From positions 50,569 through 114,568 of the forward strand of contig JAQXLA010000019.1 of the NCBI GenBank assembly GCA_029011315.1: 64,000 bases of DNA, read 5' to 3'. Source of the stretch: Desulfovibrionaceae bacterium. GTDB lineage: Bacteria > Desulfobacterota > Desulfovibrionia > Desulfovibrionales > Desulfovibrionaceae. This document shows, in pieces, positions 42,879 to 53,169 of the stretch (within the stretch, counting starts at the first letter, position 1; every line of letters begins with the position of its first letter). The notes beneath the pieces are model-generated. The model saw only the letters and a program-made list of their open reading frames with translations. It had not been told where the DNA came from and did not search any database. Made by a program: the position numbers and the translations under genes.

Positions 42879-42955
42879 GCGGCTGTGGCCCAGCTGGATA
42901 GAGCAACAGGCTACGAACCTGTAGGCCGGGAGTTCGAATCTCTCCAGCCGCACCA
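42879..42955 (+). tRNA. tRNA-Arg(ACG)
   Basis: Acceptor GCGGCTG/CAGCCGC, D-arm with AGCTGGATAGAGC, anticodon stem ACAGG/CCTGT with loop CT-ACG-AA, GTTCGAAT T-loop, encoded ACCA end. Confidence 0.97.
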
Positions 42956-42964
42956 GAATGCAAT

Positions 42965-42994
42965 GAAGAGCTTCGGAGCAATCCGAAGCTCTTC
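42965..42994 (+). terminator. Hairpin downstream of tRNA-Arg
   Basis: Perfect 13-bp stem GAAGAGCTTCGGA/TCCGAAGCTCTTC with a GCAA tetraloop; weak U-tract. Confidence 0.75.
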
Positions 42995-43064
42995 TGTTAT
43001 GCGCAAAATCCATCATGATTGTTATTCCGGCATTTTCATTGCAACGACAGGTACGGAATTCAAA

Positions 43065-44270
43065 ATGAGCCGACTTGAAGAACTTATCGCCGAACTCTGC
43101 CCGAATGGGGTGGAGTCTAAAACTCTGGGAGAACTTGCGACTGATATTTTCCGAGGTTCAGGTATCACCAGAGACCAAGTCCGTGAGAGTGGAACCCCCT
43201 GTGTAAGATATGGTGAAATCTATACGACTTATGGTGTATGGTTTGAAGAGTGTGTGTCATTCACTGACGAAAGCATAATTCCCAGCAAAAAATATTTTGA
43301 ATATGGCGACATCCTTTTTGCTATCACAGGTGAAAAGGTTGAGGATATTGCCAAATCGTGCGTGTATATTGGAAAGGAAAAGTGTCTCGCTGGCGGTGAT
43401 ATCGTCGTTATGAAGCACACGCAAAACCCAAAGTATATGGGATACGCTCTTTCTACGAGTTCAGCACAGGAACAAAAAAGTAAAGGAAAAGTCAAAAGTA
43501 AGGTCGTTCATTCAAGCGTTCCTTCAATAAAAGAAATCAAAATCCCCGTTCCACCTCTTCCCGTCCAAGAAGAGATAGTGAGGATATTAGATAATTTCGC
43601 CGAACTTACCGCCGAACTTACCGCCGAACTTACCGCCGAACTTACCGCCGAACTTACCAAAAGAAAGCAACAATATCAATATTATACAGAACATCTTTTC
43701 TTAGGCGATATGAATACGATCGTTCCGCTGGGAGATATCGCAGATATTGGAACTGGAAGTAGCAATACTAATGAAGAAACAGAAGATGGAGAATATCCCT
43801 TCTTTGTTCGTTCACAAGAAGTGCGAAAAAAAGATACTTGGGAATATGATGAAACGGCAATTATTACCGCCGGTGATGGCGTTGGGGTTGGCAAGGTTTT
43901 CCACTATATAGAAGGAAAGTATGCTCTTCATCAGAGAGCCTATCGCATTCATATTACAGCCCAAAATATCCTTCCCAAATATTTCTTCTACTATATGAAA
44001 AACACTTTTTTTTCTTATATCACACGAAACGCAGTCCACGCTTCTGTGACATCAATCAGAAGGAGAATGTTAGACAATTATCCCGTTCCCGTTCCCCCGC
44101 TGGAAGAGCAGGAACGCATTGTGGCTATCCTAGACCGCTTTGACGCTCTGTGTAACGACCTCACCAGCGGTCTTCCCGCCGAGATTGAGGCACGGAAGAA
44201 GCAATACGAATACTACCGGGACAAACTTTTGACGTTCAGGCAACGTTCCGGATCTGCTTTGAGCAACTAG
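43065..44270 (+). CDS. hsdS: Type I restriction-modification specificity subunit (type IC-like), solitary
   Basis: MSRLEELIAELCPNGVE N-terminus, two TRDs, conserved IPVPPLPVQEEIVRILDNF and VPPLEEQERIVAILDRFD...GLPAEIEARKKQYEYYRDKLLTF; spot counts of 32-40% GC. Confidence 0.95.
   Translation: MSRLEELIAELCPNGVESKTLGELATDIFRGSGITRDQVRESGTPCVRYGEIYTTYGVWFEECVSFTDESIIPSKKYFEYGDILFAITGEKVEDIAKSCVYIGKEKCLAGGDIVVMKHTQNPKYMGYALSTSSAQEQKSKGKVKSKVVHSSVPSIKEIKIPVPPLPVQEEIVRILDNFAELTAELTAELTAELTAELTKRKQQYQYYTEHLFLGDMNTIVPLGDIADIGTGSSNTNEETEDGEYPFFVRSQEVRKKDTWEYDETAIITAGDGVGVGKVFHYIEGKYALHQRAYRIHITAQNILPKYFFYYMKNTFFSYITRNAVHASVTSIRRRMLDNYPVPVPPLEEQERIVAILDRFDALCNDLTSGLPAEIEARKKQYEYYRDKLLTFRQRSGSALSN
43599..43658 (+). 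repeat. Five perfect tandem copies of 12-bp GCCGAACTTACC (AELT x5) in the HsdS spacer helix
   Basis: Read directly at 43599, 43611, 43623, 43635 and 43647. Confidence 0.97.
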
Positions 44271-44303: not shown

Positions 44304-44349
44304 GCAGAAGGCCGCATCATGAAAATTTCTTCACAATGCGGCCTTCTGC
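44304..44349. terminator. Long hairpin between convergent hsdS and the hydrogenase-like operon
   Basis: GCAGAAGGCCGCAT (44304-44317) / ATGCGGCCTTCTGC (44336-44349), a perfect 14-bp stem. Confidence 0.7.
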
Positions 44350-44367: not shown

Positions 44368-45144
44368 TTATTTCCTTGCCGGATCAAACCCGAACGGCTT
44401 TTTTCTTCCGGCGCAAAGCAGTCCGTCCAAAATCGTCCACGGGTTAGGAGGGCATCCCGGCACAAAAACATCGACGGGGATATGCGCTCCCACGCCCAGG
44501 CATCCGTCTCCGCCGTCGGCGAAGAGCCCGCCGGAAATAGCGCAGGCTCCCACGGCGATTACAACTTTCGGTTCCGGAACAGCCGCCCAGGTATCAATCA
44601 GGGCAAGCCGCATATTTTCTGTCACCGGACCGGTGACGACCAGACCGTCGGCATGACGCGGAGAAGCGACGAAATCAATGCCGAAATGCCCCAGATCATA
44701 GCTCAGCGTTCCCAGCACATTCGTATCCGCTTCGCAGGCATTGCAACCCCCGGCACTGACCTCGCGCAGTTTCAGAGAGCGGCGGAAGAAGCGCAGATCC
44801 CTGACGGAATCATGAATCTTTCGTTCCTGACCGGAAACGAGAATCAAATCCTCTCTGCGGTATACGGCCAGCCGATGCTCTGTTGTGAAAGTCACAGCCT
44901 TTTTTGGACAGATATGGGCACAGGCACCGCAGAACAGACATTTTCCCATATCCAGCTGAATTCCCCTGCCGTTTCTGCACACAGCCCCGGAGGGACAGTT
45001 TTCGGTGCAGAGCCGGCAGTCTCCGCAGTCGACATCTGCCAGAACAGGCAACCCTCGAAACCTCGGCGACATGGGTGGCAATTTATTCGGATAATCCAGC
45101 GTTCTGTAGCCCTGATGCAGGCGTTCAAGAAAAATATCAAACAT
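44368..45144 (-). CDS. Hydrogenase-4/Ehr small subunit (NuoB/HycG-like) fused to an N-terminal 2x[4Fe-4S] ferredoxin (EhrS-like)
   Basis: CGDCRLCTENCP and CLFCGACAHICP; GGCNACE, ASPRHADGLVVTGPVT, VGACAISGG, VPGCPP; start ATG 45144. Confidence 0.9.
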   Translation of the reverse strand: MFDIFLERLHQGYRTLDYPNKLPPMSPRFRGLPVLADVDCGDCRLCTENCPSGAVCRNGRGIQLDMGKCLFCGACAHICPKKAVTFTTEHRLAVYRREDLILVSGQERKIHDSVRDLRFFRRSLKLREVSAGGCNACEADTNVLGTLSYDLGHFGIDFVASPRHADGLVVTGPVTENMRLALIDTWAAVPEPKVVIAVGACAISGGLFADGGDGCLGVGAHIPVDVFVPGCPPNPWTILDGLLCAGRKKPFGFDPARK

Positions 45145-45154
45145 GGCGATATGC

Positions 45155-46648
45155 CTACAGATCATGTCCGCAGTAGGACAGGTTGAAGCTTTTATTGCAC
45201 AGCGGAAAATCCGAAATCTGCTCTCCACGCAAGGCCATGGCCAGCCCCATCCAGTTATGAAATGAGGGGTCTGTAATTTTGCAGTGTTCCAAACGCCCTT
45301 CCGCATCCGTTATGCCGATATAGCACACTTCGCCGCGCCAGCCTTCCGCAATACCGACGGCCAGAGCCAGCGGTTTGAGAGGCGTCACCGGCATGCGAAT
45401 TGTGCCGGAAGAACAGGCCTGAAGACGGTGCAAATCTGCTTCAGCCTGCAAAGCGGAATCGTCAAGCTCTGCGCTGCGCACCGCAGTGCGCGCCATGACA
45501 TCACCAGAGGTTTCCGTACGCATGACGATGCGGTTGTCCGTATCTTCCGGATCAGCCGGAAAGCCAAAGCGGGAATCCCGGCACAGTCCGGAAGCCCGCG
45601 CGGCCATACCGACCAGACCGAGACGTTCCGCGACGCTGCGGGACACGCGCCCAGTATGGCGCAGTCTGGCCAAAACCGTCGGAGACCGAAGCATGACATC
45701 TACCGATCCACGGACATCACGGTAGGCGGCGCGGAGACGCGCCATCATATCCTCGCACTCCGCCGGATTCAGATCCCGCAGTACGCCGCCAGGGCAGACA
45801 ATCCCCCTGCCGAAACGGTTGCCGCAGATCGATCCGGTCAGATTCAGGAAATCCCCGCGGATCCGACCATTCCACGATGCCGTGGGCAGAAATCCGGTAT
45901 CGCCCCCAATGGCTCCCAAATCTCCGGTATGGTTGGCGAGCCGCTCCAGCTCCAAAGCGATACGCCGTACAAGACGGGCTCGAATAGGAAGAGAAACCCC
46001 GCTCAGACGCTCAAGCATGGAACTGTACGCCGAAGCATGCGCCACAGAGGAATCACCCGCCGCATTTTCTGCCAGAAGCAGGCTCCGAACAGGCGATGCA
46101 GAACGCATCATTTTTTCGATGCCGCGGTGCTGGAATCCAAGCTGAATTTCCAGATGCATCACCTCTTCTCCGCAGCATTGAAAGCGGAAATGCCCGGGCT
46201 CGATGACGCCCGCATGTACCGGCCCTACCGCCACCTCATGAACTTCGCTGCCTTCAATCCGATAATAGCTCGTTTCTCCGGGACCTGGACGTGAACCGGG
46301 CTGATCAAATCTGCCGCAAAAGCGTACAGGCTTCAGCCATGGATGTCCTTCAGGCACAAGGCCCCAATTTTCATGAAGTTCCCTTTCAAACAGATGCAGC
46401 TGAGGACAGGACGGTGTCATGGACTCAAAATGCCGGAAGACAGGCTCGCTGCGCACTGCAGTGAGCTGATGGTTCGCATCGTCAGCCAGAACCGCAAAGA
46501 GCGCGACACCAGACGAAGCCGGAATGCCGAACAGAGACATCACGCGCCATCCTCTTCCGATCAGAAAAAGCAGTCGTTCGGCAAAAAGCTGAGGACGAAG
46601 CGTTTCGATATCTCGAAGAGAAACGCTCTCCGTATAGGAAAAATTCAT
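45155..46648 (-). CDS. Hydrogenase-4/Ehr large subunit (NuoC/D-like) lacking Ni-Fe ligands (EhrL-like)
   Basis: ERELHE.WG...GHPWLKP, GPVHAGVIEPGHFRF, HRGIEK, ELERLANH, EGWRGE, DPSF.NW; both CxxC motifs absent. Confidence 0.9.
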   Translation of the reverse strand: MNFSYTESVSLRDIETLRPQLFAERLLFLIGRGWRVMSLFGIPASSGVALFAVLADDANHQLTAVRSEPVFRHFESMTPSCPQLHLFERELHENWGLVPEGHPWLKPVRFCGRFDQPGSRPGPGETSYYRIEGSEVHEVAVGPVHAGVIEPGHFRFQCCGEEVMHLEIQLGFQHRGIEKMMRSASPVRSLLLAENAAGDSSVAHASAYSSMLERLSGVSLPIRARLVRRIALELERLANHTGDLGAIGGDTGFLPTASWNGRIRGDFLNLTGSICGNRFGRGIVCPGGVLRDLNPAECEDMMARLRAAYRDVRGSVDVMLRSPTVLARLRHTGRVSRSVAERLGLVGMAARASGLCRDSRFGFPADPEDTDNRIVMRTETSGDVMARTAVRSAELDDSALQAEADLHRLQACSSGTIRMPVTPLKPLALAVGIAEGWRGEVCYIGITDAEGRLEHCKITDPSFHNWMGLAMALRGEQISDFPLCNKSFNLSYCGHDL

Positions 46649-46651
46649 CAG

Positions 46652-48166
46652 TTATCCTCCCAGCAGACCTGCGCCACGGCCGAGAAAATCCGTCAGCCAT
46701 GCCGGCGTGTAGACGCCCATCATCAAACAAAGACAGCCCAAAATCAAAGGCGGCACGATGCTTGCCAGCGGTTCAGGTTCCGAAGTCATGCCCTCCGGCC
46801 GAGTCCCCTGCACCATGCGCAGTACAGGAACTGACATGCCGATAAAAATAATGGCCAGAGCCGCAGAATACAGGACGGCAATCAGAAAGCCACCCGACTC
46901 GAAAATACCTTTCAGAATAGTCAGCTCACTGAAAAAAAGACCGAACGGAGGCGAACCAACAATCGCCAGGAAACCGCCGACCCACAGAGCTGCCGTCAAG
47001 GGCATAACGCGTCGCATTCCGTAAATTTCACCGCAGCTGTAGGTTTTATACCGATCCAGAATATTTCCGGCCAGCAGAAAAAGCATGCACTTTGTCAGAG
47101 AATGACAGATTGCATGAAACAGTGCGCCAAAAACGGCTGAACCGCCAATTCCCACGCCGAGAGCCAGAATGCCCATATGCTCAATGCTCGAATAGGCCAG
47201 AAGACGCTTGTAATGGCGCTGGCCAATGATGAACGCGGCGGCAATGCCCAGCGAAACCAGACCGAAGAAGACAAGCAGACGCGCGCTAAATTCTCCCAGA
47301 CCCGCTGCGGCCATGACCTGGTAGCCTCGAAGGATGCCGAGAAAGGCACAGTTCAGCAACGCTCCGGAAAGCAGCGCCGAAACCAGTGAAGGAGCCTGAC
47401 TGTGCGCATCTGGAAGCCAGTTATGAAGCGGAGCCAGCCCCATTTTCGTGCCATATCCAACCAGAAGGAAAATAAAGGAAGCTTTCAGCCACGGCACGGC
47501 GTAATTGTCCGGACTTGCGCAGACTTCAGCGGCACGCTGCATAAACAGCGCGACCTGATTCATTCCCTCTTCGCCTCCGGATCCCGGAGCATAAAAAGCT
47601 ACGGACATTAGGATATTGCCGAGAAGAGCCAGAGCGATGCCGACGGAACAGATCATCAGATATTTCCAGGTCGCTTCCATAGAATGCCGATGTCTGTGAA
47701 AATAAATCAGCGGCGCGCTGGATAATGTCGTGACCTCAATACCGACCCAAAGGGCACCGAAATGCGGCGTCAGCGTTACCAGCGTCATGGCCGCCAGAAA
47801 GATACACAAGCAGGCTGAAAAACGACGTTCCGGAGCGTTGGTGAAAACCTGACCGCCTTGAATATCACGTCGCTTCTGCTGTCCCATCGCCTCACGACGC
47901 AGGTAATCAATGCCATACACCGTCGCAGCGGCAAACAGCAGACTTGCTATGGCCAGGAACAGAAGTCCAAGCGCATCAGGATTGAGAAGACCGCCCAGGG
48001 CTGAAAGCCTGATGCCGTACGCATCGCAGACCAGAGCCGCCGCTGTCAGTACGACATGAACACCCGCCGTAACCCCCAGACAGACTCGCGAAAAGAATAC
48101 ATTGTCAACGAGCAGGATGAGCGTTCCCGCAAAAACAGGGAAGAAAAGCAAAAGATTCAAAAGCAT
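46652..48166 (-). CDS. Antiporter-like membrane subunit (HyfF/NuoM-like)
   Basis: Multi-TM, LWVGIEVTTLSS, EATWKY, GYGTKMGLAPLHNWLPDAHSQAP, KRLLAYSSIEHMG. Confidence 0.9.
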   Translation of the reverse strand: MLLNLLLFFPVFAGTLILLVDNVFFSRVCLGVTAGVHVVLTAAALVCDAYGIRLSALGGLLNPDALGLLFLAIASLLFAAATVYGIDYLRREAMGQQKRRDIQGGQVFTNAPERRFSACLCIFLAAMTLVTLTPHFGALWVGIEVTTLSSAPLIYFHRHRHSMEATWKYLMICSVGIALALLGNILMSVAFYAPGSGGEEGMNQVALFMQRAAEVCASPDNYAVPWLKASFIFLLVGYGTKMGLAPLHNWLPDAHSQAPSLVSALLSGALLNCAFLGILRGYQVMAAAGLGEFSARLLVFFGLVSLGIAAAFIIGQRHYKRLLAYSSIEHMGILALGVGIGGSAVFGALFHAICHSLTKCMLFLLAGNILDRYKTYSCGEIYGMRRVMPLTAALWVGGFLAIVGSPPFGLFFSELTILKGIFESGGFLIAVLYSAALAIIFIGMSVPVLRMVQGTRPEGMTSEPEPLASIVPPLILGCLCLMMGVYTPAWLTDFLGRGAGLLGG

Positions 48167-48170
48167 GAGA

Positions 48171-48815
48171 CTAATCCCTGAGGCTGCAGAAACGCCCGAC
48201 ATCTGTCGATTCGAACGTACTGCTGATATGGTGGATAGCAATGCCCATGACAAAAACGGCAACAAACACATCCAGCAGGATGCTCAGTTCAAACCATGCG
48301 CCGCCTTCTGTCATCAGCGGAATACCAATCAGAAAAATGCCGTTTTCCGCAGCCATATACCCGATGACCTGCGACATGGCCTTGGTTCGGCATACGACCA
48401 TAATCAATCCGGAAAACAGCGTTGTCAGCGCGGCCGGAAGCAGAAGCGGAGGGAAAAGATCGTGATCGATGGGCAAGCGCATTTCCATCCACAGAGAAAA
48501 ACACAGCCCCGCAAGTCCCAACAAAACCATCCAGGCATAGCTCAGACGCGGAAAGCAGCTGGAACCAATCGCGACGCGCCGCAGCGTGCGCAGCAGAAGA
48601 ATCGGCAGACCGATGCCCTTGATCAACAGGACGGCTGTACCGAGAACCAGCAGATATGTTGCGTTCGATCCAATCGTCATCAGCAACCCGGCAAGCAGCA
48701 TTCCCTGAATTGCAATGAGAGCTACCAGAGAAGGCAGGCGACTGAACCAGAGCAGCCCCAGATTATTCAGCAGCAGAAGAACCAAAAAAGCCTGAAAAAA
48801 ATCTATCGTCATCAT
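48171..48815 (-). CDS. HyfE-like (NuoK-related) membrane subunit
   Basis: Multi-TM, IKG..LP.LL, QVIGYMAAENGIFL, E..ILLDVFVAVFVMGI. Confidence 0.85.
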   Translation of the reverse strand: MMTIDFFQAFLVLLLLNNLGLLWFSRLPSLVALIAIQGMLLAGLLMTIGSNATYLLVLGTAVLLIKGIGLPILLLRTLRRVAIGSSCFPRLSYAWMVLLGLAGLCFSLWMEMRLPIDHDLFPPLLLPAALTTLFSGLIMVVCRTKAMSQVIGYMAAENGIFLIGIPLMTEGGAWFELSILLDVFVAVFVMGIAIHHISSTFESTDVGRFCSLRD

Positions 48816-48830
48816 TCCTAGTTCTCCGTT

Positions 48831-49763
48831 CTATCTCGCAAGGGTCAGAACCAGAGCAAAAGCCGCAAACATCCCCGCTCCGCAAATCAGATGCGGAACA
48901 TAGATGAGGCGAAGACGAGCCATCACAGATTCCACGATGCCGACAGCCACGGCTATGCCGAATACGACGCCAAGATAAACTCCCGTTCTCGTCCAGAAAG
49001 GAACATCCGGCACAACCAGCCCTGCGAGAAGCGCGGCAAAAAACCAGAGCTTTAAGGCCGAGCCATACAGAATGAATGCCAGAGAAGGCCCGGAATGATC
49101 CAGTATCATGACTTCATGAATCATCGTCAGCTCCAGATGCGTATTGGGATCATCGGCCGGAATACGGCAGTTTTCCACAAGCAGGATAATGAACAGCACC
49201 GCCGGGATGAGAAGCAGCTCCACACGATTCAGCACCCAGGCGAAAGCCGGAGCACCATGGAACATGCCGGTCAGTGAAAGATCTGTCGCCGATCCCATAG
49301 AGGAAGCCGCTCCGAACATGGTCAGGAAGCAGAGGAACAGAACCGGTTCGCACAAAGCCGAAAAAAATGCCTCGCGGCTCGTGCCCATCCCTTCAAAAGG
49401 CGATCCCGTATCCAGAGACGAAGCCATCATGGCAAACCGTCCGACTCCAAGCAGATACGCTGCCATAATGCAGTCGCCCTGAAAAGCGACAGGAGAAGCA
49501 ACGCCGCCCAGCGGCAAAAACAGCATGGCGCACAGGACGGAAGCCAGGGAAACAGCCGGACCGATGCGAAACATCGGACCGGTGACTGTTCCGATCACTT
49601 CGCCTTTTCGCAAAAGCTTGGCAAGATCAAAATACATCTGCAAAAGCGGCCGGCCATGCCGTCCCGCCACCTTTGCCTTGACTCTGGCGATAACGCCGAT
49701 CATCAATGGTGCCAGCATGAGGGCAAGCAGCTGCTGCACACCGTACATCATCACTTCGTTCAC
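48831..49763 (-). CDS. HyfC/HycD (NuoH-like) membrane subunit
   Basis: R.GRPLLQ.YFDLAKLLRK, LDTGSPFEGMG.SRE, ENCRIPADDPNTHLELTMIHE.MILDHSGP, ES.MARLR; GTGA overlap with hyfB. Confidence 0.9.
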   Translation of the reverse strand: MNEVMMYGVQQLLALMLAPLMIGVIARVKAKVAGRHGRPLLQMYFDLAKLLRKGEVIGTVTGPMFRIGPAVSLASVLCAMLFLPLGGVASPVAFQGDCIMAAYLLGVGRFAMMASSLDTGSPFEGMGTSREAFFSALCEPVLFLCFLTMFGAASSMGSATDLSLTGMFHGAPAFAWVLNRVELLLIPAVLFIILLVENCRIPADDPNTHLELTMIHEVMILDHSGPSLAFILYGSALKLWFFAALLAGLVVPDVPFWTRTGVYLGVVFGIAVAVGIVESVMARLRLIYVPHLICGAGMFAAFALVLTLAR

Positions 49764-51781
49764 TCGTGCAACCCCCAGATTAGCAGAACGACTACCGTGG
49801 CCAGAATATAGAGAATGTACAGATGGATCCGTCCGTGCTGCAAAATTTTCAACCGTTCTGCCACATCGGCAATACGTTCAAAAAGCGGCGCGTACAACCG
49901 CATTCTCAAGCGATCTTCAGCTTCAATTTCACAGGTTTCTCCGGCAGGAAACAGAGCTTCCCTGCCCGCAAGATGCTCCTTCCTCTTCAACCCCATCAAA
50001 GGCGAAAAAACCCAGGATGCGGGATTGACAAAGGAAATATCCGTATACTGAATGCGTGATGTTCCGTACTGATATCCGCAGCCCCAAACGGCTCCGGACT
50101 GCACGCGCCCCCGCACGAGAAGCCAGCGCACGACGGAAAGCACCGCTACAACAACAATAAGCAGCACACCAAACCACGAAACATAACGCAGAGCCTCTGA
50201 TACGACAGAAAGACTGACTTCCGCTTCAGCCAGCTGAGCCGCCCCCAAAGGAATCAGCTGCATAACAGCTCCCTTCGTCAAATGAAACGGCGCTTCCGCA
50301 TACAGTCCTCCGAACACGCACAAAGCTGCGGGGATCAGAAGAGGCCAAACAGTGAGCAGTCCGCCGTGTTCTTCAAGATTCTCCGCAAAGGAGGAACGAG
50401 GCATTCCCTGAAAAACGGATCCGTAGGCTTTCACGAATGTCACAACGGCCATGCCGCCAACCAAAGCCACGCCAATCAGAGCTCCCAGCAGACCAATCTG
50501 CTGTCCTACTCCCGGAAGCTCAGAGCCCTGAACCATCGTCAATGCCAGCACCAGTTCACCGCAGAAGCCGTTAAAAGGAGGAAGACAGGCGATGGACATC
50601 GAACCAATCAGGAACAGTCCGCTCACCAGCGGCATCTGCTTCTGCAGACCGCCGAGCAGATCCATGCGAACTGTCCCTGCGGCATGCAGAACCTCTCCGG
50701 CACACAGGAAAAGAAGACCTTTGAACACCGCATGATTCAGCATATGGAACAGCGAAGCCGACATGCCGAGCACGGCAATGGAAATATTTCCAGACAAAGA
50801 GCCTATCAGGCCGCAGGCTGCACCAATCAGCATGATGCCCATATTTTCAACACTGGAATACGCCAGCATTTTCTTCAGATTCGACTGTGCCGAAGCTTTA
50901 AAGATGCCGCAGAGCGCTGTCGTCAAGCCCAGTCCGAGCAAAATCCAGCCGCTCCAGATCGGCAGCGATGCTCCCAGAAAGTCCAGGGAACGAAGCAGAC
51001 CGTACAAACCAGCATTAATCATGGCACCGGACAGAAGTGCTGAGACATGACTCGGCGCGGCGGGATGCGCTTCAGGAAGCCAGACATGCATGGGAAACAG
51101 TCCGGCTTTTGCACCGAATCCGATCAGGGAAAGTGCCGCCAGAACCATTTTTAAAACCGGTCCGGGCTCAAACTGAGACAAATCTGTAAACGATGTCGAT
51201 CCCGAAGCCTGCCACAGCAGAGCAAAGAATGCGATCAGAAACACAGCTCCAAGATGCGCAGCTGTCAGATAAATCCAGGACGCTCTGCGCACTGCGGCCT
51301 TTTCATCATCAAAATCAATAAGGAAAAACGGAGAAACCGACATGATTTCCCAGGATATCAGGAATAATATCAGATCCCGGGATGTCATCACCAATGCCAT
51401 GCCTAAAATCAGCAGAGCATAGAACATCCAATGAATGCCAAGACTGTGCTCCCTGGAATCCTCATGCCGAAAAGCGATACGGCCGGAAAACGCACAAACC
51501 AGACCGAGACCGAAAACCGGAATCAAAAAAATCCGACTCAACGGATCCAGTCCAATTCGAAAGCTGCCAAAAGGCAGACCCCATGGCATGCCGCAACTTT
51601 CCTGAGCATTCCAGCCAAAACACAATGATGCCAGGCCAAAGGCGCATCCGGCAGCTATGGCAAGTGAACCGAATTTTGGAACAAGGTGAAACGCCGGAGA
51701 TGCCGGACGCAAAAGTGCCGAAATTCCACAGGCCGCTGCCGCAAGCGTCAGAATTCCTATTGCCGCTATAAAAAAAAACAT
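49760..51781 (-). CDS. HyfB (NuoL-like) antiporter membrane subunit
   Basis: FLISWEIMSV, GFGAKAGLFPMHVWLPEAHPAAPSHVSALLSG, LKKMLAYSSVENMG, H..NHA.FKGLLFL, LPPFNGF.GE, W.CGY, RIQYT; AGGAGG 6 nt upstream. Confidence 0.9.
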   Translation of the reverse strand: MFFFIAAIGILTLAAAACGISALLRPASPAFHLVPKFGSLAIAAGCAFGLASLCFGWNAQESCGMPWGLPFGSFRIGLDPLSRIFLIPVFGLGLVCAFSGRIAFRHEDSREHSLGIHWMFYALLILGMALVMTSRDLILFLISWEIMSVSPFFLIDFDDEKAAVRRASWIYLTAAHLGAVFLIAFFALLWQASGSTSFTDLSQFEPGPVLKMVLAALSLIGFGAKAGLFPMHVWLPEAHPAAPSHVSALLSGAMINAGLYGLLRSLDFLGASLPIWSGWILLGLGLTTALCGIFKASAQSNLKKMLAYSSVENMGIMLIGAACGLIGSLSGNISIAVLGMSASLFHMLNHAVFKGLLFLCAGEVLHAAGTVRMDLLGGLQKQMPLVSGLFLIGSMSIACLPPFNGFCGELVLALTMVQGSELPGVGQQIGLLGALIGVALVGGMAVVTFVKAYGSVFQGMPRSSFAENLEEHGGLLTVWPLLIPAALCVFGGLYAEAPFHLTKGAVMQLIPLGAAQLAEAEVSLSVVSEALRYVSWFGVLLIVVVAVLSVVRWLLVRGRVQSGAVWGCGYQYGTSRIQYTDISFVNPASWVFSPLMGLKRKEHLAGREALFPAGETCEIEAEDRLRMRLYAPLFERIADVAERLKILQHGRIHLYILYILATVVVLLIWGLHE

Positions 51782-53134
51782 TCATGACCTCCTAAGAGTC
51801 TTTTTCTGCCACAGCAGGAACAGACCCAGAACCACGACAGTAGCCAAAAAATCCGAAGCCGGAAGGCTGTACCAGATTCCGTCAACCCCAAAATACCTGG
51901 GCAGAATCAGCAGACAGGGTACAAGAAAGCCCATCTGCCGCAAAACCGAAAGAAACATCGCCAAATACGCGCTGCCAACGGCTTGAAAAAAATTCGCCAG
52001 CACAATCTGGATTCCGACCAGAGGAAACATCAGCGATCCAAGACGCAGCCCATTCACCGCAGCCTCAAGCAGGACGCCGGGTTCGGTAAACATGCCAGAA
52101 ATCTGCCGTGGCAGAAATACCCCGAGGATAAAGCCGAAGGTCATAATTATCGTGCCGGCAATCAGACCCAGCTTCAGCGCATGAAACATGCGATCCAGCT
52201 TTTTTGCACCGAAATTGTATCCGATAATGGGCTGAAGGCCATAGGACAGCCCCAGAACAATCATCAAAAACAGAAAATGAATTCGATTGATGATGCCAAA
52301 CGCGCCTATTTCCAAATCTCCGCTGTAATTTTTGATAGCGGAATTGATCACGGCGACAACGGCGCATCCGCACAGATTAACAAAAAACGGTGCCATGCCG
52401 ATAGAAATAATGCCGATGAAAATATCCTGACGCAACCGGAAAATGCCCCGTTTAAAACGCACAACAGGCAGGGATCCCGCAAAATGCAGCACACAGCGAA
52501 GAACACCGCAGAATTGGGAAAGCACCGTTGCGGCGCCGGCACCCACCATACCCCATTTGAAAACAAAAATGAACAGAGGCGCCAGAACAATATTCACTGC
52601 AACAGAAAGCAGCAGGACGGACATTGCCCGATACGGATAGCCTGTAGCCCGGATAAGGTGGGACAAATTGAAAAAGGTGTATGTTACCGGAAGGCCGAAT
52701 ATCTGTATAAGAATAAAATCTCTGGCATACGGAAGCGTTTCCTCACTGGCACCGAACAGGGACAGCATGTCGTCCAGAACAAGCAGCTCCAGCAAACCGA
52801 AGATCAAACCGAATAGAATATTGAGCACAGTGACATTGCCAAGAACATTTCTGGCCTCTTCAGGACTGCCCTCGCCAAGACGAATCGAGCTGACAGACGC
52901 CCCTCCGATTCCTACCAGCGTACCGACTGCAGCCCCAAGATTCATTAGAGGAAAGGCCAGAGCGACGCCGACAATGCCCAGATCTCCGATACCGCGGCCG
53001 ATAAAAATGCTGTCAATCACATTATACAGCGACACGGCCACCATGCCGGCAATAGCAGGCAGCGAATACTTCAGCACCAGAGAACCAACGGGATCCTGCC
53101 CCAATGCAACTGTTTCATCTGAATGTTCCGCCAT
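51782..53134 (-). CDS. MATE family efflux transporter (MepA-like)
   Basis: LG..PVG.L..KYSLPAIAGM, LYNVIDSIFIG, NIVLAPLFIF.F.WGM.GAG.AT..SQ, QPIIGYNFGA; about 12 TMs. Confidence 0.93.
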   Translation of the reverse strand: MAEHSDETVALGQDPVGSLVLKYSLPAIAGMVAVSLYNVIDSIFIGRGIGDLGIVGVALAFPLMNLGAAVGTLVGIGGASVSSIRLGEGSPEEARNVLGNVTVLNILFGLIFGLLELLVLDDMLSLFGASEETLPYARDFILIQIFGLPVTYTFFNLSHLIRATGYPYRAMSVLLLSVAVNIVLAPLFIFVFKWGMVGAGAATVLSQFCGVLRCVLHFAGSLPVVRFKRGIFRLRQDIFIGIISIGMAPFFVNLCGCAVVAVINSAIKNYSGDLEIGAFGIINRIHFLFLMIVLGLSYGLQPIIGYNFGAKKLDRMFHALKLGLIAGTIIMTFGFILGVFLPRQISGMFTEPGVLLEAAVNGLRLGSLMFPLVGIQIVLANFFQAVGSAYLAMFLSVLRQMGFLVPCLLILPRYFGVDGIWYSLPASDFLATVVVLGLFLLWQKKTLRRS

Positions 53135-53169
53135 ATGGCATTCCACCCCTCAAACACATTGACATTTTC

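Follow-up and report, generated by a model that had tools for sequence, protein, structure and literature searches.

A core Ehr-type complex without Ni-Fe ligands in a Desulfovibrionaceae genome with no detected hydrogenase, probably a ferredoxin-fed ion pump

The Ehr (energy-converting hydrogenase-related) complexes were reportedly named in Geobacter by Coppi in 2005, and the term is said to have been generalised by Marreiros et al. in 2013. They have been described as relatives of the group 4 hydrogenases that lack the Ni-Fe ligands and whose function is unknown (PMC6349859; PMC3569383; PMC10284858); in Geobacter sulfurreducens, the complex is encoded by GSU0739-0745 (EhrA-1, A-2, B, C, D, L and S) (PMC7894505; PMC3569383; PMC6349859). 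For a second system, Hyq of Azorhizobium caulinodans, mutant physiology indicated that it recycles nitrogenase H2 and evolves H2 under microaerobiosis, and its authors pointed out that both CxxC motifs are missing from HyqG and called a Ni-Fe site 'uncertain, if not unlikely' (PMC2650096; PMC3357923). Here, a gene cluster of this type was analysed in a 64,000-nt stretch of a Desulfovibrionaceae genome (the window), where it occupies positions 44368-51781. Its six genes encode an intact core Ehr-type complex that belongs to a known, widespread family, and this copy brings no new architecture. The complex is unable to carry a Hyp-built Ni-Fe centre, and as a whole explanation of the cluster we consider it probable that the complex is not a [NiFe]-hydrogenase and works as a ferredoxin-fed redox ion pump.

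The cluster consists of six co-directional, closely packed open reading frames (ORFs), as follows:

49760..51781, minus strand: HyfB/NuoL-like antiporter-type membrane subunit (EhrA-like), 673 amino acids (PF00361, 2.2e-53)
48831..49763, minus strand: HyfC/HycD/NuoH-like membrane subunit (EhrB-like), 310 amino acids (PF00146 NADHdh, 7.2e-25)
48171..48815, minus strand: HyfE-like small membrane subunit (EhrC-like), 214 amino acids (NCBIfam hydrogenase 4 membrane subunit, 1.4e-14)
46652..48166, minus strand: HyfF/NuoM/N-like antiporter-type subunit (EhrD-like), 504 amino acids (PF00361, 1.9e-47; HyfF, 1e-101)
45155..46648, minus strand: large subunit (EhrL-like), a NuoC-like and NuoD/HycE-like fusion, 497 amino acids (PF00346, 3.9e-25; weak PF00329)
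44368..45144, minus strand: small subunit (EhrS-like), a fusion of a HycF/NuoI-type 2x[4Fe-4S] domain and a HycG/NuoB-type domain, 258 amino acids (PF01058, 1.8e-25; Fer4)

The original prediction, made from the sequence alone, had named HyfB-, HyfC-, HyfE- and HyfF-like subunits, a NuoC/D-like large subunit and a ferredoxin-fused NuoB-like small subunit, and the Pfam and NCBIfam matches gave the same six. The HyfB-like protein also matched the NCBIfam model 'hydrogenase 4 subunit B' (1.2e-154) under its cut-off; the NCBIfam scores of all six proteins fell under the equivalog cut-offs, and therefore none is orthologous to the named E. coli proteins. Two starts were corrected because of where the profile matches began, the gene lengths of relatives and the junction sequences: the raw HyfF-like ORF (46652-48271) stays open up to 48271, and its start is most likely the ATG at 48166, 4 nt past the stop of the HyfE-like gene, as relatives have it; for the small subunit, the likeliest start is the ATG at 45144, not the start of the raw ORF (44368-45306). 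In the latter ORF, the match to the formate hydrogenlyase (FHL) Fe-S subunit (HycF/HyfH/NuoI type, 1.4e-18) covered residues 55-156 and that to NuoB (1.1e-29) residues 174-298. The genes are separated by spacers of 3-11 nt or joined by a 4-nt overlap, as at the EhrB-like gene, which begins with GTG and overlaps the upstream stop; GGAG-type ribosome sites precede several of them, and the HyfE-like gene occupies the same operon position in relatives.

Three stretches of the large subunit bear on the former active site:

46037..46069, minus strand: former L1 site, ENAAGDSSVAH (RxCGxCxxxH in hydrogenases), from alignments to HycE/HyfG
45158..45190, minus strand: former L2 site with the C-terminus, SFNLSYCGHDL and then the stop (DPCxxCxxR and a cleaved tail in hydrogenases), from alignments to HycE/HyfG
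46166..46240, minus strand: beta1-beta2 loop region, HEVAVGPVHAGVIEPGHFRFQCCGE, with the hydrogenase-type EPGHFR signature kept; almost invariant in the family

Alignments were made with HMMER to HycE (7z0s_E) and MbhL (6cfw_L) and with MAFFT to E. coli HycE and HyfG, and the methods agreed. With both HMMER and MAFFT, DRVCGICGFAH aligned with ENAAGDSSVAH and DPCYSCTDR with NLSYCGHDL, so that the four canonical Ni-Fe cysteines correspond to Ala196, Ser200, Ser491 and Gly494 in the window protein. The two site sequences were exactly as first reported; the loss of the Ni-Fe cysteines stood, and the count of three lost out of four did not, since all four canonical positions are replaced and the remaining Cys493 lies one residue before the fourth. 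Neither group 4 [NiFe]-hydrogenase motif, L1 (RxCGxCxxxH) or L2 (DPCxxCxx(H/R)), occurs in the window large subunit. The chain ends level with the cleavage-site Arg of HycE and has no C-terminal maturation tail, in agreement with the earlier statement that a cleavable extension is missing.

Much of the surrounding pocket is conserved in the family. E194, G198 and D199 are invariant, as is the PRG-motif Arg that is kept (EGWRGE); the beta1-beta2 loop of hydrogenase type (GPVHAGVIEPGHFRF) is retained and almost invariant, and 111 of 120 close homologues carry CNKSFNLSYCGHDL. Both Cys484 and Cys493 reach about 95% conservation, with Cys493 replaced by Ala or Ser in 4/80 relatives and Cys484 by Asn or Val in 3/80. 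Four conserved cysteines, C158, C275, C484 and C493, may form a candidate new metal or cluster site; C484 and C493 fall short of strict invariance across phyla, and Hyq does not conserve C158 and C275. Where RxCGxC has its 'R', the window protein has Asn195 (46064-46066), most Desulfovibrionaceae orthologues have Cys (ECxAGD) and other phyla Thr; because of the Asn and Thr, this lineage-specific L1 cysteine is dispensable.

The genome around the cluster, a 26-contig draft of 1,485,434 bp with an estimated completeness of 100%, contains no detected machinery for a Ni-Fe centre. The absence of a maturation gene, first noted for the vicinity of the cluster, extended to the whole genome: tblastn with E. 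coli queries found none of HypA-F, HycI, HyaA/B and NuoA/E/F/G/J/K, and hidden Markov model (HMM) searches of the genome returned no match to HypD, to the [NiFe] large subunit (PF00374) or to [FeFe] hydrogenase (PF02906). The Ehr large subunit is the sole PF00346 gene, and Ehr the sole complex-I-type module. The genome's sole molybdopterin-family protein, QrcB, belongs to a QrcABCD cluster, and hence formate dehydrogenase is absent. Genes were present for pyruvate:ferredoxin oxidoreductase (PFOR), RnfCDGEAB, MenF/D/C/B/E, a UbiA-type prenyltransferase, cytochrome bd, FrdAB and DsrAB; the futalosine pathway was absent from the genome, which carries the classical Men pathway instead.

In a sample of 201 Desulfovibrionaceae species genomes, an Ehr orthologue was found in 63, HypD in 181 and NuoD in 101. 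HypD was missing from 11 of the 63 Ehr-positive genomes, including all five sampled from one genus. A role of Ehr as a substitute for Nuo was rejected, as 34 genomes had both and 29 had Ehr only (p = 0.54).

The closest database homologues, at most 63% identical, came from Desulfovibrionaceae named as Ca. Avidesulfovibrio, Mailhella, Desulfovibrio and Solidesulfovibrio. A family scan with the motifs IEPGHFRF and CNKSFNLS, one genome per species, yielded at least 600 matching stretches, spread over more than 10 phyla. The best 80 of these loci were 46-57% identical; they came from Desulfobacterota (including Geobacter sp., Geomonas limicola and Pelobacter), Planctomycetota, Verrucomicrobiota, Acidobacteriota, Spirochaetota, Lentisphaerota, Omnitrophota, Myxococcota, Chlamydiota, Gemmatimonadota and one Rhizobium metagenome-assembled genome. 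The six-gene order B-C-E-F-L-S was found in all 80, across more than 10 phyla.

Phylogenetic placement had been named beforehand as one test able to overturn the Ehr assignment. In maximum-likelihood trees, the window large subunit, on a somewhat long branch (0.48-0.51), fell within a Desulfovibrionaceae subclade of a cysteine-less core clade with 100/100 support that includes Geobacteraceae, represented by Geobacter sp., Geomonas limicola and Pelobacter sp. in place of GSU0743 itself. The sister clade was formed by rhizobial and Azospirillum HyqG, and core Ehr and Hyq together made up one 100/100-supported cysteine-less superclade. HycE/HyfG, NuoCD and the large subunits of the Desulfovibrionaceae Ech/Coo-type enzymes lay on the far side of a long branch; the protein is thus placed apart from bona fide group 4 hydrogenases. 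The subunit set, the gene order, the lost Ni-Fe ligands and the cysteine-less clade all agree with the Ehr assignment.

Compared with Geobacter Ehr, the window cluster has the same subunit types, the gene order A-B-C-D-L-S, the loss of the Ni-Fe cysteines and a small subunit with a ferredoxin-type domain; large subunits from Geobacteraceae (Geobacter sp. and Geomonas limicola) are 50-54% identical and belong to the same 100/100 clade. The two differ in that Geobacterales, like some other groups, have two HyfB-like genes, matching EhrA-1 and A-2, whereas the window has one, and in that Geobacter carries Hyp and several hydrogenases (PMC7894505), whereas the window genome has none.

The comparison with Hyq of A. 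caulinodans and Rhizobium leguminosarum (hyqRBCEFGI) raises another explanation. Six structural genes in the order B-C-E-F-G-I are common to both, HyqG lacks both CxxC motifs and ends in ...FPLCNKSFNCSYSGHDL, and the beta1-beta2 loop and GDS motifs are shared. It is conceivable that the window complex is a non-canonical hydrogenase, in which a pocket of Glu150, Asp199, Ser491, Tyr492, Cys484/Cys493 and His495 would interconvert H+ and H2 without a Hyp-made Ni-Fe cofactor. Its activity would then be that of an H2:quinone or ferredoxin:H+ oxidoreductase, in line with the claims made for Hyq, the rhizobial 'endo-hydrogenase'. Deletion of hyq in A. caulinodans abolishes H2 recycling, and hyq-bearing, hup-less strains evolve H2 fast though HyqG is devoid of both CxxC motifs (PMC2650096; PMC3357923). 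The pocket signatures GPVHAGxIEPGHFRF, SGDS and FPLCNKSFNxSYxGHDL are common to Hyq and core Ehr, which form one superclade, and both the proton-path Glu (EPGHFR) and the PRG-motif Arg are kept. The Hyq data, however, are in vivo only, from an organism that also carries Hup and Hyp, and no activity or metal analysis of purified Hyq has been reported (PMC2650096; PMC3357923). The Hyq clade is the sister and not the core clade: the hyq cluster of a Rhizobium symbiotic plasmid is 33-36% identical to the window protein, HyqI has 177 amino acids and no ferredoxin domain whereas the window small subunit has a 2x[4Fe-4S] domain, hyq includes a helix-turn-helix regulator gene and is under NifA control, and the C-terminal Cys is shifted (NCSYSGHDL in Hyq vs NLSYCGHDL in the window). 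In vivo H2 phenotypes have been claimed for Hyq and nothing comparable for core Ehr. To our knowledge, no biological H2 catalyst works without a Ni-Fe, Fe-Fe or Fe-GP cofactor, which also counts against this explanation. There would be no H2 economy to serve, because the genome has neither Hyp nor another H2 enzyme, and later surveys leave Ehr outside the hydrogenases (PMC10284858). We therefore regard a nickel-free hydrogenase as quite unlikely here. The broader idea hinted at by the in vivo Hyq data, that the Ehr/Hyq pocket is a new catalytic centre turning over H2 without nickel and without Hyp, seems to us less likely again; if it were true, the only H2 enzyme of this genome would be a previously unrecognised kind of hydrogenase. 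The original statement that the substrate is unknown holds for core Ehr (PMC10284858); it had not considered the published in vivo H2 evidence for the sister Hyq.

Second cysteine-less Hyf-like clusters were seen adjoining a core Ehr cluster at L059:1226-8962 (Verrucomicrobia) and at L062:12251-18923 (Geobacteraceae), the copy at the latter locus grouping with rhizobial HyqG. Their large subunits were 36-37% identical and end in NKSFNLSYSGTDR or NKSFNASYSGHDL. Because a second cluster stands beside core Ehr and one of the two groups with HyqG, some genomes hold both subfamilies in tandem.

Among described hydrogenases, the E. coli Hyf/Hyc system (FHL, 7z0s) gave the best match in sequence and fold. 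The best sequence match of the large subunit in the Protein Data Bank was HycE 7z0s_E (1.6e-39, 27-30% identity), and MbhL 6cfw_L matched at 1.6e-36; an AlphaFold2 model (predicted local distance difference test, pLDDT, 86.9; predicted template modelling score, pTM, 0.89) had 7z0s_E as its best Foldseek match (TM 0.84, E 1.4e-28). Homologues of HyfB, C, E, F, G, H and I are present, with NuoC and NuoD fused as in HycE. Unlike the E. coli system, the window cluster has no Ni-Fe cysteines, cleaved tail, HycI or Hyp, and no HyfA/HycB, HyfD or FdhF partner, and its HyfH and HyfI are fused. The Ech/Coo enzymes of Desulfovibrionaceae share the host family and the overall fold, and their NuoD-like part is about 30% identical, but they keep RICGICSCIH or RVCSLCSNSH plus DPCxSCTER, one of them in the window's own genus; their large subunits of about 360 amino acids have no NuoC fusion and stand on the other side of the tree. 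Complex I/NDH-1 shares with the gene cluster its modular layout, the ligands of the N2-type cluster and the pump residues of the antiporter-like subunits. It differs in that a complex I is expected to have at least 11 core subunits and the gene cluster holds six genes, NuoA, J, K, E, F and G were not found genome-wide by tblastn, the third antiporter-like subunit is missing, and NuoCD was the most distant sequence in the tree.

The Fe-S wiring and the two antiporter-like subunits, which had been described as intact, proved to be so, with 12/12 cysteines and all pump residues present. The ligands are as follows, with conservation counted, here and below, among relatives from many phyla chosen via the large-subunit motifs:

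44908..45027, minus strand: eight Cys (C40, 43, 46, 50, 69, 72, 75, 79) for two ferredoxin-type [4Fe-4S] clusters, aligned with HycF (63-67/68 relatives)
44452..44745, minus strand: four Cys (C134, C137, C201, C231) for a proximal N2-type [4Fe-4S] cluster, aligned with HycG (64-66/68 relatives)

The eight ferredoxin-type cysteines lie in two CxxCxxCxxxCP motifs, and all 12 align with HycF/HycG ligands and were retained in 63-67 of the 68 relatives. In both antiporter-like subunits, the Glu of transmembrane helix 5, the Lys of helix 7, the His-His-Lys of helix 8 and the Glu of helix 12 are as in NuoL/M/N and HyfB/F: E145, K225, H346, H350, K354 and E409 of the HyfB-like protein align with the key residues of NuoL/M/N and HyfB, and E144, K241, H351, H355, K359 and E414 are intact in the HyfF-like protein.

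The complex might instead be an Mrp-like cation or proton translocator without redox catalysis, in which the peripheral arm and its clusters would be structural or act as a redox sensor or gate. Individual Fe-S cysteines were missing in 1-5/68 relatives, as that explanation would allow, and no partner or substrate gene is conserved beside the operon: the three Desulfovibrionaceae neighbourhoods and the 80 loci of other phyla had just the six genes in common. It is opposed by the presence of all 12 ligands in the window and in nearly all sampled relatives, and by the large subunit being the most conserved of the six (132/497 columns at least 95% conserved, in loci that were chosen via large-subunit motifs), with its conservation concentrated in the four segments that form the active-site pocket in hydrogenases. 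A purely ion-translocating complex is thus rather improbable.

A ferredoxin-fed ion pump is the likeliest role of the complex. Ech and Mbh have no input module, and electrons enter them from a soluble low-potential carrier. Likewise, a soluble low-potential donor, probably ferredoxin reduced by PFOR, would bind the small subunit at its exposed HycF/NuoI-like domain, and electrons would run via the three [4Fe-4S] clusters into the remodelled pocket, which lies where the large, small and HyfC-like subunits meet. Redox chemistry in this pocket would then power the movement of ions through the HyfC/HyfE channel and both antiporter-like subunits.

A ferredoxin-driven pump could instead have a sulfur or thiol acceptor, either polysulfide/sulfane sulfur as in the archaeal MBS/Mbx complexes or a DsrC-type trisulfide, with Cys484/Cys493 redox-active. 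MBS, with its 13 subunits and known sulfane acceptor, is the one solved Cys-depleted group 4 derivative with a new acceptor; MBS/Mbx and the Mycobacterium tuberculosis Rv0082-Rv0087 'EHR' (neither of them included in our trees) resemble the window complex as group 4 derivatives without the full Ni-Fe site. The window operon has no Mrp module. The host has a DsrAB-type sulfur metabolism, the two cysteines are about 95% conserved, and most Desulfovibrionaceae have a third Cys in the L1 region. However, the similarity to MbsL (6u8y_L, 9.7e-13) is far weaker than that to HycE (1.6e-39). The family also occurs in many phyla that do not respire sulfur, e.g. Planctomycetota, Verrucomicrobiota and rhizobia, either cysteine is replaced in a few relatives, and the window protein lacks the L1 Cys. 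A sulfur acceptor is accordingly judged unlikely. For the M. tuberculosis EHR, missing Hyp genes have been used to argue that it is not a hydrogenase (PMC6728331).

For the ferredoxin-fed pump in this organism, our best guess at the acceptor is menaquinone, a tentative choice to which we give a clear minority of our belief. As a ferredoxin:menaquinone oxidoreductase, Ehr would link cytoplasmic ferredoxin to the quinone pool, and such a link would fill a gap, because the cell has no H2 or formate cycling and no Nuo; two pump modules would suit the large potential span from ferredoxin to menaquinone. The pool would feed Frd, cytochrome bd and presumably the Dsr route. That core Ehr in general is a proton-pumping ferredoxin:menaquinone oxidoreductase, by which sulfite and sulfate reducers bypass H2 and formate cycling, is possible but doubtful.

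Several points weigh against this interpretation. The quinone ligands of complex I are gone, Nqo4 Tyr87 corresponding to Gly198 and His38 to Ile149 (Thermus thermophilus numbering); no negative association between Ehr and NuoD was found in the 201 genomes (odds ratio 1.24, p = 0.54); and Riflemargulisbacteria with Ehr were reported to have no quinone biosynthesis (PMC6349859). These three bear on menaquinone. For the complex as a whole, the structural model is unreliable in the pocket (residues 123-151 and 484-497, with pLDDT <50 at 140-151 and 484-497), the genomic absences depend on the estimated 100% completeness of a 26-contig draft, and the sister Hyq clade has in vivo genetic evidence of H2 turnover (PMC2650096; PMC3357923).

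Formate as a donor was ruled out here by QrcB being the sole molybdopterin-family protein of the genome. A link between formate dehydrogenase and Ehr has been proposed (PMC6349859), and Geobacter Ehr subunits were more abundant on formate (PMC7894505). Elsewhere in the window genome (G000, contig C8:20269-24974), a complete QrcABCD menaquinone reductase was found, with QrcA, B and D scoring above their NCBIfam cut-offs. Qrc usually receives its electrons from periplasmic [NiFe] or [FeFe] hydrogenases and formate dehydrogenase, via cytochrome c3. The genome thus has Qrc and neither a periplasmic [NiFe]/[FeFe] hydrogenase nor a formate dehydrogenase.

Two further features border the operon:

51782..53146, minus strand: MATE efflux gene, outside the complex (PF01554, 5.4e-42)
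44304..44349, no strand assigned: hairpin with a 14-bp stem in the convergent gap between the small-subunit gene and hsdS (read from the sequence; plus-strand half flagged by a scan)

The hairpin is likely a bidirectional terminator. Beyond it, at 42879-44270, lie a tRNA-Arg(ACG) and then an hsdS-like gene, which contains an (AELT)5 repeat and is convergent with the Ehr operon. On the other side, the TGA of the MATE gene directly abuts the first Ehr ATG (junction 51779-51800), and an AGGAGG lies within the 3' coding end of the MATE gene; because of these two features, the Ehr operon is probably co-transcribed and translationally coupled with the MATE gene, in this genome only. The consensus promoter scan gave 6 sites vs 7.1 expected in shuffled sequence, i.e. 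no excess. In relatives, there is no MATE gene upstream, and a gap of 120-550 bp and unrelated genes are found instead. The junction resembles an operon fusion from genome compaction. The MATE gene was rejected as a functional partner, since the upstream fusion is specific to this genome. Upstream of the Ehr operon of the closest named relative (L003:619-3566, GCA_965328465.1), large unannotated ORFs are flanked by two genes for type-III-secretion chaperones of the CesT type, which hints at a host-associated lifestyle of the lineage.

The apparent loss of the promoter region through the MATE fusion, the small genome (1.49 Mb vs 1.7-2.9 Mb in the same genus) and the somewhat long large-subunit branch would fit a decaying, functionless relic in a shrinking genome. 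Against this, all six frames are open, the Shine-Dalgarno sites and translational coupling are intact, and 368/381 positions with at least 95% conservation are retained across the six proteins (HyfC-like, 55/56; HyfF-like, 44/44; large subunit, 129/132), the deviations being mostly conservative. The operon has also been kept while all hydrogenases, Hyp, Fdh and Nuo are absent. By its sequence, the Ehr operon here does not appear to be decaying, and a relic is barely credible.

Energy modules are patchy within the genus. The window genome has Ehr only; G169 has Ehr, Ech and Hyp; G112 and G188 have Ech/Coo-type enzymes and Hyp; and G061 and G146, at 1.7 Mb, have Hyp and no group-4-like large subunit.

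Ehr was named in 2005, and its reaction has long been a missing piece between complex I and the hydrogenases of the membrane. The value of the present copy lies in its genomic background, which serves as a natural knock-out without Hyp, hydrogenase, Fdh or Nuo. Because the complex is retained in a genome free of Hyp, hydrogenase and Fdh, its core function presumably needs neither the Ni-Fe cofactor nor formate, and the family survey backs the same point, with Ehr persisting in 11 HypD-negative Desulfovibrionaceae genomes. With this background, fewer partners are plausible: ferredoxin at one end, and at the other either menaquinone or a small acceptor in the cytoplasm.

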